Assembly (NCBI RefSeq): GCF_003334355.1
Contig: NZ_QOWP01000007.1
Source of the DNA: Escherichia coli
GTDB lineage: Bacteria; Pseudomonadota; Gammaproteobacteria; Enterobacterales; Enterobacteriaceae
Reading direction: 5' to 3' (one strand)
DNA: 64,000 bases
Shown: positions 2,184-18,602 of the stretch, in pieces
Numbering within the stretch: position 1 is the first letter of the stretch
How the letters are laid out: each line of letters opens with the position of its first letter
Made by a program: the position numbers and the translations under genes
The notes under the pieces: generated by a model
Database searches by the model: none
The model's input: only the letters and a program-made list of their open reading frames with translations
Told to the model about the DNA's origin: nothing

Positions 2184-2804
2184 ATGCTGAAAACTATCCG
2201 AAAACACGGCATTACGTTGGCGCTATTTGCAGCGGGTTCAACAGGGTTAACTGCGGCCATCAACCAGATGACCAAAACGACGATTGCTGAACAGGCCAGT
2301 CTGCAACAAAAGGCGTTATTTGATCAGGTGCTGCCAGCCGAACGCTATAACAATGCGCTGGCACAGAGTTGCTATCTGGTAACTGCGCCAGAGTTAGGTA
2401 AAGGTGAGCATCGGGTTTACATCGCCAAACAGGATGACAAACCGGTAGCCGCCGTTCTGGAAGCAACCGCGCCAGATGGCTATTCCGGTGCGATTCAGCT
2501 GCTGGTGGGAGCCGATTTTAACGGCACGGTACTTGGCACGCGCGTGACAGAGCACCACGAAACGCCAGGGCTTGGCGATAAAATCGAACTGCGCCTTTCT
2601 GACTGGATCACCCATTTTGCGGGTAAAAAAATCAGTGGTGCAGATGATGCGCACTGGGCGGTGAAGAAAGATGGTGGTGATTTCGACCAGTTCACCGGCG
2701 CGACGATTACTCCCCGCGCGGTGGTTAATGCGGTAAAACGCGCCGGATTGTACGCTCAGACGTTACCGGCACAACTTTCTCAACTTCCTGCCTGTGGAGA
2801 ATAA
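2184..2804 (+). CDS. rsxG: RsxG/RnfG FMN-binding subunit (206 aa)
   Basis: Track ORF; N-terminal membrane anchor; 3-bp spacing from rsxD; operon context. Confidence 0.92.
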
Positions 2805-2807
2805 AGC

Positions 2808-3503
2808 GTGAGCGAAATTAAAGACGTTATTGTTCAGGGGTTGTGGAAAAACAACTCTGCGCTGGTCCAGTTGCTCGGCCTTTGTCCTCTGTTGGCGGTC
2901 ACGTCCACTGCCACTAACGCTCTGGGTTTAGGACTTGCGACTACGCTGGTACTGACGCTGACCAACCTGACCATTTCGACGCTGCGTCACTGGACGCCAG
3001 CCGAGATCCGCATTCCCATTTACGTGATGATCATCGCCTCGGTGGTCAGCGCTGTACAGATGCTGATCAACGCCTACGCCTTTGGCCTGTATCAATCATT
3101 AGGGATTTTTATTCCGCTGATTGTCACTAACTGTATCGTTGTGGGCCGCGCTGAAGCCTTCGCCGCCAAAAAAGGTCCGGCGCTTTCGGCACTGGACGGC
3201 TTTTCAATTGGTATGGGCGCAACCTGCGCCATGTTCGTGCTGGGTTCACTACGCGAAATTATCGGCAATGGCACATTGTTTGACGGTGCAGATGCGCTGT
3301 TAGGTAGCTGGGCAAAAGTATTACGCGTGGAGATTTTCCACACCGACTCCCCTTTCCTGCTGGCGATGCTGCCACCAGGTGCATTTATTGGCCTGGGACT
3401 GATGCTGGCAGGAAAATACCTGATTGATGAAAGAATGAAAAAGCGCCGTGCTGAAGCAGCTGCAGAACGTGCATTGCCAAACGGTGAAACAGGGAATGTC
3501 TGA
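2808..3503 (+). CDS. rsxE: RsxE/RnfE membrane subunit (231 aa), GTG start
   Basis: Track ORF 2808..3503; hydrophobic NqrD/RnfE-like sequence; operon context. Confidence 0.9.
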
Positions 3504-4138
3504 TGAATAAAGCAAAACGCCTGGAGATCCTCACTCGCCTGCGTGAGAACAATCCTCATCCCACCACCGAGCTTAATTTCAGTTCGCCTTTTGAATTGCT
3601 GATTGCCGTACTGCTTTCCGCTCAGGCGACCGATGTCAGTGTTAATAAGGCGACGGCGAAACTCTACCCGGTGGCGAATACGCCTGCAGCGATGCTTGAA
3701 CTGGGCGTTGAAGGGGTGAAAACCTATATCAAAACGATTGGGCTTTATAACAGCAAAGCAGAAAATATCATCAAAACCTGCCGTATCTTGCTGGAGCAGC
3801 ATAATGGCGAGGTTCCGGAAGATCGTGCTGCGCTTGAAGCCCTGCCCGGCGTAGGTCGTAAAACAGCCAACGTCGTATTAAACACTGCATTCGGCTGGCC
3901 GACTATTGCTGTCGACACGCACATTTTCCGCGTTTGTAATCGTACTCAATTTGCGCCGGGGAAAAACGTCGAACAGGTAGAAGAAAAGCTACTGAAAGTG
4001 GTTCCGGCAGAGTTTAAAGTCGACTGCCACCATTGGTTGATCCTGCACGGGCGTTATACCTGCATTGCCCGCAAGCCCCGCTGTGGCTCTTGTATTATTG
4101 AAGATCTTTGTGAATACAAAGAGAAAGTTGACATCTGA
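3503..4138 (+). CDS. nth: Endonuclease III (211 aa)
   Basis: Track ORF; HhH-GPD region and C-terminal Cys cluster CIARKPRCGSCIIEDLC; start overlaps rsxE stop (ATGA). Confidence 0.93.
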   Translation: MNKAKRLEILTRLRENNPHPTTELNFSSPFELLIAVLLSAQATDVSVNKATAKLYPVANTPAAMLELGVEGVKTYIKTIGLYNSKAENIIKTCRILLEQHNGEVPEDRAALEALPGVGRKTANVVLNTAFGWPTIAVDTHIFRVCNRTQFAPGKNVEQVEEKLLKVVPAEFKVDCHHWLILHGRYTCIARKPRCGSCIIEDLCEYKEKVDI

Positions 4139-16715: not shown

Positions 16716-17612
16716 TTACGGTACGTCGTACCCCAGTGCCGCTTTACGGATACGAAACCATTGTTGACGGGTCATTTTCAGTGTTTCTGCTTCGACAGCT
16801 GCCCGTACGCGCTCAATTTTACCTGAACCGATAATTGGCAGCGGCTGCGATGGTAAACGTAATACCCAGGCGTAAACCACCTGTTCAATCGAGCCCGCGT
16901 TTAACTCCTCTGCCACCACAGCCAGTTCATCACGCAGCGGCTGGAAATAATCATCATTAAACAGACGACCACCACCAAGGCAGGACCACGCCATCGGACG
17001 AACACGCAGTTGTTGTAGTTGGTCGAGCGTGCCATCCAGCAGTAACGGCTGATGCACCGGGGATATTTCCACCTGATTAGTGGCAAGGGTAAACGGCAGA
17101 CGTGATTGCAACAGGGCAAATTGCGCAGGCGTAAAGTTCGATACGCCAAAATGACGCACTTTGCCGCTCTGATGCAGATGTTTGAACGCGTCCGCCACTT
17201 CATCGGCATCCATTAACGGGTCTGGTCGGTGGATTAACAGCAAATCCAGATGATCGGTCGCGAGATTAATTAGCGACTGTTCGGCGCTCTTAATGATGTG
17301 ATCGCGGTCAGTGATGTAATGACCAATGACGTTTTCTTCACGCGCGGTCGTCGCGATACCGCATTTACTGACGATTTCCATCCGTTCACGCAGGTGAGAT
17401 GCCAGTTTCAGTGCCTCGCCAAACGCCGCTTCGCACTGATAGCCACCATAAATATCAGCATGGTCCACGGTGGTCACGCCGAGATCCAGATGCTCTTCAA
17501 TAAAACTGACCAGCTGGCGGGCGGACATATTCCAGTCCATCAATCGCCAGTAGCCCATCACAAAACGGGAAAACTCCGGGCCTTGCGGCGCAATAGTAAT
17601 ACGCTGAACCAT
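16716..17612 (-). CDS. ydhF: Aldo-keto reductase family oxidoreductase YdhF (298 aa)
   Basis: Track ORF; AKR-like sequence; length match. Confidence 0.9.
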   Translation of the reverse strand: MVQRITIAPQGPEFSRFVMGYWRLMDWNMSARQLVSFIEEHLDLGVTTVDHADIYGGYQCEAAFGEALKLASHLRERMEIVSKCGIATTAREENVIGHYITDRDHIIKSAEQSLINLATDHLDLLLIHRPDPLMDADEVADAFKHLHQSGKVRHFGVSNFTPAQFALLQSRLPFTLATNQVEISPVHQPLLLDGTLDQLQQLRVRPMAWSCLGGGRLFNDDYFQPLRDELAVVAEELNAGSIEQVVYAWVLRLPSQPLPIIGSGKIERVRAAVEAETLKMTRQQWFRIRKAALGYDVP

Positions 17613-17660
17613 AATCGCTTCCTCTTATCAGATATGAGAGGAGTATACGCAAGATTAGGT

Positions 17661-17900
17661 TCAAAAGAGTGATGGTTGCTCCGGTTCGTCTGATGACGCT
17701 GGCTTATTTGCGCGTAATTTGCGCATTAATCGCTGCCGACAAAGGCGCAGCACCTCTTGTTTTTCGCCATCGCTCATTTTATTCCAGTTAAAACGCTCAT
17801 CACGACTACGAAAACAGCCGCGACAAAACCCGCGTTCGTCAGACTGGCAAATTCCCCGGCACGGGCTCTGGACGGGAAAGAACTCTAATTGCTCCGCCAC
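17661..17900 (-). CDS. ydhL: DUF1289 Cys-rich small protein YdhL (79 aa, GTG start); track ORF trimmed
   Basis: C-terminal 79 codons of track ORF 17661..18071; CxGxC...CxGC cluster (CRGICQSDERGFCRGCFRSRDE). Confidence 0.78.
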   Translation of the reverse strand: MAEQLEFFPVQSPCRGICQSDERGFCRGCFRSRDERFNWNKMSDGEKQEVLRLCRQRLMRKLRANKPASSDEPEQPSLF

Positions 17901-17972
17901 TTCGCCCTCCTCAGATAAGATTATTACCATTATTGAAGCTGTTAATGTCCAAAGTAGCAACTTTGCTTGCAC

Positions 17973-17988
17973 TAGACCGACTGGTCTA
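17973..17988. promoter_or_regulatory. NemR operator palindrome TAGACCGACTGGTCTA
   Basis: Perfect 16-bp palindrome 15 bp upstream of nemR start, in nemR/ydhL divergent region. Confidence 0.75.
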
Positions 17989-18002
17989 CTACACTCCAAC
18001 GC

Positions 18003-18602
18003 ATGAACAAACACACCGAACATGATACTCGCGAACATCTCCTGGCGACGGGCGAGCAACTTTGCCTGCAACGTGGATTCACCGGGATGGGGCTAAGCGA
18101 ATTACTAAAAACCGCTGAAGTGCCGAAAGGGTCCTTCTATCACTACTTTCGCTCTAAAGAAGCGTTTGGCGTTGCCATGCTTGAGCGTCATTACGCCGCA
18201 TATCACCAGCGACTGACTGAGTTGCTGCAATCTGGCGAAGGTAACTACCGCGACCGCATACTGGCTTATTACCAGCAAACACTGAACCAGTTTTGCCAAC
18301 ATGGAACCATCAGTGGTTGCCTGACAGTAAAACTCTCTGCCGAAGTGTGCGATCTGTCAGAAGATATGCGCAGCGCGATGGATAAAGGTGCTCGCGGCGT
18401 GATCGCCCTGCTCTCTCAGGCGCTGGAAAATGGCCGTGAGAACCATTGTTTAACCTTTTGTGGCGAACCGCTGCAACAGGCACAAGTGCTTTACGCACTG
18501 TGGCTTGGCGCGAATCTGCAGGCCAAAATTTCGCGCAGTTTCGAGCCACTGGAAAACGCGCTGGCCCATGTAAAAAACATTATTGCGACGCCTGCCGTTT
18601 AG
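18003..18602 (+). CDS. nemR: TetR-family repressor NemR (199 aa)
   Basis: Track ORF; TetR HTH N-terminus; perfect palindrome just upstream; followed by nemA. Confidence 0.92.
   Translation: MNKHTEHDTREHLLATGEQLCLQRGFTGMGLSELLKTAEVPKGSFYHYFRSKEAFGVAMLERHYAAYHQRLTELLQSGEGNYRDRILAYYQQTLNQFCQHGTISGCLTVKLSAEVCDLSEDMRSAMDKGARGVIALLSQALENGRENHCLTFCGEPLQQAQVLYALWLGANLQAKISRSFEPLENALAHVKNIIATPAV

Follow-up and report, generated by a model that had tools for sequence, protein, structure and literature searches.

An inverted repeat in the nemR promoter of Escherichia coli as the probable operator of NemR, and its apparently incidental adjacency to a probably separate ydhL unit

In the chromosome of Escherichia coli, ydhL, a gene for a small cysteine-rich protein, lies divergently from nemR, which encodes a TetR-family repressor, and the question raised by this locus is whether a 16-bp repeat situated between the two genes serves one of them or both. 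The stretch of DNA that was analysed, referred to here as the window, comprises 64,000 nucleotides of E. coli (NCBI RefSeq assembly GCF_003334355.1, contig NZ_QOWP01000007.1). The ORF list, the annotation and Pfam agree on the coding sequence of ydhL (17661–17900, minus strand; 79 aa, GTG start, DUF1289), and a Shine–Dalgarno sequence, GAGGAGG, can be read ahead of the GTG at 17906–17912 on the same strand. The coding sequence of nemR, the first gene of nemR-nemA-gloA, occupies 18003–18602 on the plus strand, with its ATG at 18003 (ORF and annotation), and the intergenic spacer is thus 102 bp long. An earlier note on this DNA had described the repeat as a perfect 16-bp palindrome that fits a NemR operator, and had proposed from its position that ydhL could be co-regulated with nemRA-gloA. 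The data presented below make it probable that the repeat is the operator of NemR, a repressor that senses electrophiles and bleach, that ydhL belongs to a separate unit, and that control of ydhL by NemR is not conserved.

The 16-mer TAGACCGACTGGTCTA was located at 17973–17988, exactly where the earlier note had placed it, and has no strand of its own. Its reverse complement, however, is TAGACCAGTCGGTCTA, and the description of the site as a perfect palindrome has to be corrected: only the outer six bases on each side (TAGACC and GGTCTA) pair with one another, and the central GACT is not self-complementary. The site is, hence, a 6+4+6 inverted repeat. A wider, imperfect complementarity was also observed, with arms of 11 nt that span 17968–17993 and are 82 % complementary.

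The distribution of this box was followed in a comparative set of 80 Enterobacterales loci encoding close relatives of YdhL, in which the neighbouring genes were located by tblastn. It is apparent that the box accompanies nemR. When up to two mismatches were allowed, it was found 10–19 nt, and mostly 13–15 nt, upstream of the nemR start codon in 69 of the 70 loci that contain nemR; the TAGACC-N4-GGTCTA pattern was exact in 56 of these, and 13 more contained one or two mismatches. The arms were conserved, whereas the four nucleotides between them varied (AGTC, AATC, GATT, GATC, ATTC and others), and in a few species the centre makes the site a truly perfect palindrome. The sole nemR locus without a recognisable TAGACC-N4-GGTCTA box upstream of nemR was that of Kosakonia cowanii (L061).

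With respect to ydhL, by contrast, the box lay anywhere from 69 to 3486 nt away across the loci. In Lelliottia, Enterobacter, Buttiauxella, Yersinia, Erwinia and Winslowiella, nemR and ydhL are separated by other DNA, and the box remains with nemR. In one Lelliottia locus that was inspected (L013), the separating DNA is a phosphoethanolamine-transferase-like gene (2224–4029) inserted between the two. In the separated loci, the whole of the DNA from nemR to ydhL contained no second box with up to two mismatches, and none was found within 400 nt of ydhL in loci that lack nemR. In Photorhabdus (L066, L070, L071, L074, L075 and L077), both nemR and nemA are absent, and ydhL faces gloA directly, with no box in between. 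On this comparison the box is an element of nemR, since it keeps its distance from that gene while its distance from ydhL varies and a separated ydhL has no copy of it.

The layout of the nemR promoter was derived as a phylogenetic footprint, by alignment of the 60 nt upstream of nemR from approximately 70 species. A fixed order was observed: cTTGCA(T/C), the 16-bp box plus one base, TA(C/G)A(C/G/T)T, six to eight unconserved nucleotides, and the ATG. In the window, the predicted promoter reads TTGCAC-N17-TACACT on the plus strand. Its putative −35 hexamer, TTGCAC (17967–17972; TTGCAT in most relatives), adjoins the box, and its putative −10 hexamer, TACACT (17990–17995), is separated from the −35 by 17 nt and from the ATG by 7 nt, such that the box fills the 17-nt spacer. 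The transcript is predicted to start at the ATG itself, and the alignment showed no Shine–Dalgarno sequence between the −10 element and the ATG. The nemR mRNA is probably leaderless, or nearly so, because the −10 ends so close to the ATG, the gap between them is not conserved, and a Shine–Dalgarno sequence is missing. An operator placed in a promoter spacer is a classic arrangement for repression by occlusion: a NemR molecule bound in the spacer of this promoter would exclude RNA polymerase, and the nemR-nemA-gloA operon would be autorepressed. Electrophiles or HOCl would then release NemR from its operator by modifying its cysteines. That step is taken from the literature, where a reviewed account states that electrophiles lower the affinity of NemR for DNA.

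The earlier suggestion that the repeat fits the operator of a TetR-family NemR protein is borne out by the position of the box in the nemR core promoter and by the conservation of its arms, and it was also already known. The nemRA-gloA operon's NemR box is the same locus and the same sequence, with TAGACC and GGTCTA arms within the nemR promoter, and operator mutations are known that derepress nemRA-gloA. Umezawa and colleagues are said to have defined that box by footprinting in 2008. A review describes a point mutation at the site bound by NemR that results in overexpression of GloA. In a study of E. coli evolved on methylglyoxal-rich honey, seven isolates were mutated in nemR, and the other four all carried a G>A change at intergenic position (−84/−19). 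This change was mapped here to position 17984 of the window, the second G of the GGTCTA arm.

The box is, accordingly, a real, functional and already described NemR/RutR operator of the nemRA-gloA promoter, and its confirmation adds little, as the control of nemRA-gloA is textbook-level for this locus. With respect to the published box, the sole correction is its description as a 6+4+6 repeat. With respect to the locus, the corrections are that this repeat is embedded in what is predicted to be the nemR promoter, that its adjacency to ydhL appears to be incidental, and that ydhL and ydhF probably form a unit with a promoter of their own.

The last of these points derives from a promoter-like element that was detected by phylogenetic footprinting upstream of ydhL. 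The pattern TTGCnn, exactly 17 nt, TT[CG]A[ACT]T was present in 71 of 81 sequences, against 0.9 in shuffles. Among the 71 matching sequences, the −10 element was TTCAAT in 60 and was situated 29–32 nt before the start codon in 66. In the window, the putative −35 is TTGCTA (17955–17960, minus strand; TTGCnn in relatives) and the putative −10 is TTCAAT (17932–17937, minus strand), 31 nt upstream of the GTG. The element is kept whichever neighbour lies upstream of ydhL, be it nemR, the transferase gene or other DNA. The −35 hexamers of nemR and ydhL stand back to back with 6 bp between them. In E. coli the box is situated upstream of the ydhL −35, from which 12 bp separate it, at about −48 to −63, and does not overlap the ydhL core promoter.

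The next gene on the ydhL strand, 48 nt beyond the 3′ end of ydhL, is ydhF (16716–17612, minus strand), which encodes an aldo-keto reductase and is the probable operon partner of ydhL. A scan of the 48-nt gap found no terminator-like site. The two genes are adjacent in nearly all of the loci, including those in which nemR is distant or absent, and ydhL is linked far more tightly to ydhF than to nemR. It is most likely, on these grounds, that ydhL and ydhF constitute one transcription unit, of which ydhL would be the first gene, transcribed from its own back-to-back promoter, TTGCTA-N17-TTCAAT, with a predicted start near 17925.

The strongest competitor of this reading is one bidirectional operator, at which NemR would repress both nemRA-gloA and ydhL(-ydhF), and which would place YdhL in the electrophile and bleach regulon. 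The short distances in the 102-bp divergent spacer agree with it, as does a syntenic neighbourhood that is rich in detoxification genes (sodC, ydhF, nemA and gloA); in addition, ydhL overexpression was recovered in the resistance screens for both H2O2 and HOCl that are described below. Transcript data from E. coli CFT073 treated with HOCl could be read in the same way: log2 changes by RNA sequencing were 3.0 for nemR, 2.7 for nemA and 1.0 for gloA, and the neighbouring tag c2040 changed in the same direction by 1.0. That change of approximately twofold is, however, unspecific amid the thousands of genes that changed, and c2040 stands for either ydhF or ydhL.

Several further points weigh against a ydhL unit that is independent of NemR. 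In one of two chromatin immunoprecipitation–microarray (ChIP-chip) experiments on RNA polymerase after methylglyoxal treatment, the induced region (1723800 + 1500 bp) covers 60 % of ydhL; in the other experiment ydhL was excluded from the induced region, and the method is of low resolution and not strand-specific. A TetR-type footprint that reaches about −41 could disturb the upstream contacts of polymerase at ydhL, and the divergent promoters are near enough that they could compete or be coupled via supercoiling. The assignment of the ydhL promoter is itself putative and unproven, as position 2 of TTCAAT is not the A that is canonical for a −10 element. A generic σ70 and terminator scan of 17550–18150 found no promoter, having missed the ydhL −10 for that reason.

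A shared operator is, nevertheless, improbable when these points are set beside the comparative evidence. When nemR and ydhL are separated, or nemR is lost, the box goes with nemR and not with ydhL. In Escherichia, Citrobacter and Salmonella the box is 12 nt away from the ydhL −35, in Kosakonia, Kluyvera, Atlantibacter and others at least 31 nt, and even at its closest the box leaves the core elements of the ydhL promoter free. Genomic SELEX (systematic evolution of ligands by exponential enrichment), moreover, classed NemR among the single-target regulators.

A comparison with tetR/tetA leads in the same direction. There, as here, the gene of a TetR-family repressor is divergent from its neighbour over a short spacer, and the operators overlap both promoters. 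In the present locus, by contrast, the operator overlaps only the promoter of the repressor gene, nemA and gloA follow nemR on its own strand, and the gene divergent from nemR differs from genus to genus. Two features expected of a shared operator, namely overlap with the divergent promoter and a conserved linkage to the divergent gene, were not observed for ydhL. A conserved co-regulation of ydhL with nemR is not supported, because ydhL has its own conserved promoter-like element and is more tightly linked to ydhF. The proposal of the earlier note is not, therefore, supported by comparative genomics: judged by the loci compared, the adjacency of the box to ydhL is evolutionarily incidental, and the data argue against NemR control of ydhL as a conserved feature. 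At most, a weak and indirect coupling between NemR and ydhL may be present in Escherichia, Citrobacter and Salmonella.

It is far less probable that the repeat serves mainly as an operator for RutR, through which nemRA or ydhL would be coupled to the control of pyrimidine catabolism. The exact 16-mer is a published RutR target. It was among 20 targets identified by ChIP-chip in vivo, centred 22.5 nt upstream of ydhM (nemR), and 16 of those 20 were bound with high affinity in electrophoretic mobility shift assays, consensus positions 4 and 13 being kept in those 16. The box has the same 16-bp geometry as the RutR consensus, TTGACCAnnTGGTCAA; it agrees with it at 11 of 14 positions and keeps positions 4 and 13, and it differs at positions 2 and 15 (A/T and not T/A). 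Those differences tell against RutR as the principal ligand, since the arms are TAGACC and GGTCTA, and not TTGACC and GGTCAA, in approximately 70 species, which fits a NemR-specific site. Furthermore, most RutR targets showed little or no effect on transcripts in the same study, and a review states that RutR binds upstream of nemRA-gloA without regulating the operon.

The notion that the repeat is a chance feature of AT/GC-mixed intergenic DNA can be dismissed, for although perfect 6-N4-6 inverted repeats are common in the window (27 observed against 15.6 expected) and 57 of 100 shuffles contained at least one match to the box pattern with up to two mismatches, the position and the arms are kept from Escherichia to Yersinia, and published binding data and an adaptive point mutation within the repeat point the same way. 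By its sequence alone, the repeat at 17973–17988 is not significant; its significance comes from its conservation, and on the conservation data a chance origin is already refuted.

A second perfect 6-N4-6 inverted repeat, with the arms CAAAGT and ACTTTG around AGCA, was found at 17950–17965 (no strand), where it overlaps the ydhL −35. It was rejected as a conserved operator because it is confined to Escherichia, and it is probably a chance or lineage-specific feature. Two terminator-like hairpins at 17796–17834 (minus strand), within the ydhL coding sequence, were likewise dismissed as probably due to chance. A published σ54 site from chromatin immunoprecipitation sequencing, CTGGTTCAGTGTTTGCT, lies at 18274–18290 (minus strand), antisense inside nemR and directed toward ydhL. 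It was rejected as a conserved ydhL promoter: most other genera have CC in place of its −12 GC, and the site looks Escherichia-specific.

In E. albertii and E. whittamii (L003, at approximately 655–785, and L005), an insert of about 120 bp is situated between the ydhL −10 and the start codon, in the predicted 5′ untranslated region; it resembles an ERIC/IRU element. In the Photorhabdus loci, ydhF and sodC are also missing downstream of ydhL, and no TTGCnn-N17-TTCAAT was observed upstream. An entry for Salmonella bongori N268-08 in the AlphaFold database (AFDB; S5N7T4) is a 394-aa protein named 'aldo/keto reductase' whose N-terminus corresponds to YdhL (88 % identity), and it represents either a YdhL-YdhF fusion or the loss of a stop codon.

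The 1.4 kb around the ydhL-nemR spacer belongs to the E. coli chromosome, matches with at least 95 % identity being present in 5426 of 5426 complete E. coli genomes. In the RefSeq annotation of a matching chromosome, ydhK, sodC, ydhF and ydhL share a strand, and the opposite one carries nemR, nemA, gloA, rnt and lhr.

The YdhL protein itself carries CRGIC (residues 14–18) and CRGC (residues 26–29), as the earlier note had read from the sequence. Residues 12–57 match the Pfam family DUF1289 (PF06945) with an E value of 3.1e–19, over model positions 1–46 of 47. A search of 1.84 billion representative proteins yielded 1316 relatives of YdhL. In 84 diverse family members, P13, C14, C18, C26, C29, R31, E35, W39 and R57 are invariant, and the four cysteines, Cys14-x3-Cys18-x7-Cys26-x2-Cys29 (codons 14–29, 17814–17861, minus strand), form a putative metal site. 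Each of the 80 orthologues from Enterobacterales has a length of exactly 79 aa. In the AlphaFold2 (AF2) model, the core (residues 11–60) has a mean predicted local distance difference test (pLDDT) score of approximately 89–93 per block of 10 residues and contains the cysteine knuckle and helices at 33–37 and 44–65, the latter strongly basic; outside the core the mean is 64 for residues 1–10 and 65–75 in the tail. The family bears the database/COG label 'predicted Fe-S protein YdhL', and a redox or metal role for YdhL is plausible.

Searches for more distant relatives yielded little beyond the family. A sequence search of the PDB gave only a spurious match to a designed repeat and no relative of the fold, and NCBIfam, PADLOC and Rfam searches returned nothing relevant. 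The 50 top matches listed by Foldseek against AFDB50 were DUF1289 relatives or unnamed homologues, together with one YdhL-YdhF fusion. Seven weak matches, restricted to the cysteine core, were found in phage genomes, and no recurrent context was observed in the gene neighbourhoods of four distant YdhL homologues.

Published phenotypes of ydhL come from large-scale screens. Overexpression of the gene conferred resistance to H2O2, the strain being among 20 that grew at the higher, 6 mM, H2O2 selection, and ydhL was also a candidate for resistance to HOCl on overexpression. One transposon study (transposon-directed insertion-site sequencing) called ydhL essential. That call is doubtful on account of IS1 insertions in the ydhL region: two complete E. 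coli genomes, NZ_CP104112.1 and NZ_CP148440.1, have IS1 insertions within the matched ydhF-ydhL-nemR region, and the annotation of the former splits its DUF1289 gene into two pieces. In addition, ydhL is listed in screens of the Keio single-gene deletion library.

The by-product of most interest in this analysis is a pair of peptides at the two ends of YdhL that resemble motifs for binding to the β sliding clamp and that provide a testable hypothesis for a conserved and uncharacterized protein. The N-terminal peptide is QLEFF (codons 4–8, 17877–17891, minus strand), which is invariant in 78 distinct enterobacterial proteins. The C-terminal one is QPSLF-COOH (codons 75–79, 17664–17678, minus strand), in which Q75, P76, L78 and F79 show no variation, S77 being present in 97 %. 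Both lie outside the Pfam domain and are not covered by the description of the DUF1289 family. In the 78 sequences the termini are as invariant as the cysteines, and the linker at residues 65–70 is hypervariable, with entropies of 1.8–3.0 bits.

The same peptides recur in the wider family. Q-x-x-[LF]-F was found shortly before the first cysteine in 122 of 138 family representatives. At the other end, a relaxed motif, Q-x-[SDTGEN]-[LMIF]-F, was present in 57 of 129 tails, compared with 1.3 in shuffles (maximum of 6 in 500), and a strict one, Q-[LIVMFAPQ]-[SD]-[LM]-F, in 42 of 129, compared with 0.15. Across the family the core consensus at the tail reads Q-x-[SD]-[LM]-F, with variants that include QLSLF, QLDLF, QLGLF and QLNLF, and the motif lies no more than one residue from the C-terminus in 37 of the 57 cases. 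The N- and C-terminal motifs tend to be found in the same proteins (55 of 115 against 2 of 14, p = 0.02).

The motif for binding to the β sliding clamp, QL[SD]LF, is found in Pol II, Pol IV, UmuC, delta, MutS and Hda, with a terminal position in the first three and in Hda, and its definition is reportedly due to Dalrymple in 2001. YdhL resembles these proteins in having Q-x-[SD]-[LM]-F at the extreme C-terminus, after a variable linker modelled with low confidence, and it has a second motif, Q-L-E-[LF]-F, at the N-terminus, placed like that of Hda. It departs from the clamp motif in the P at position 2 of QPSLF and the F at position 4 of QLEFF, so that each of the two peptides matches the consensus at all but one position.

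On this basis it may tentatively be proposed, as a possibility well short of probable, that YdhL and its gammaproteobacterial DUF1289 relatives are small, basic, four-cysteine metal-binding proteins that dock on the β clamp via both termini, in which case QLEFF and QPSLF-COOH would each occupy one cleft of the clamp dimer. Modelling of the interaction was uninformative. In an AF2 fusion of DnaN, a 30-glycine linker and YdhL (DnaN-G30-YdhL), for which the E. coli DnaN sequence was checked against PDB 1MMI, the results were poor. The clamp alignment contained only sequences at least 87 % identical, and for that reason just one of the five models folded; the pLDDT of domain III was mostly 55–75, and that of the YdhL termini was no higher than approximately 52. 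Neither motif docked or gained confidence in these models, an outcome that neither supports nor refutes clamp binding. Judged by title and abstract, none of the papers in the library searched that mention ydhL or DUF1289 is about the sliding clamp. If the proposal were true, YdhL would be an undescribed clamp partner unrelated to NemR, through which replication or repair could be coupled to the redox or metal state of the four-cysteine site. Such a role would also fit the resistance to H2O2 and HOCl on ydhL overexpression.

A minor observation concerns the DNA that separates nemR from ydhL in some genera. Inserts similar to the transferase gene of the inspected Lelliottia locus were observed in L012, L016, L018, L020 and L025 and in the Buttiauxella and Yersinia loci. 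Near the phosphoethanolamine-transferase insert, a conserved GATTAG-N5-CCTTAAT-like repeat was found, which resembles a PmrA box.

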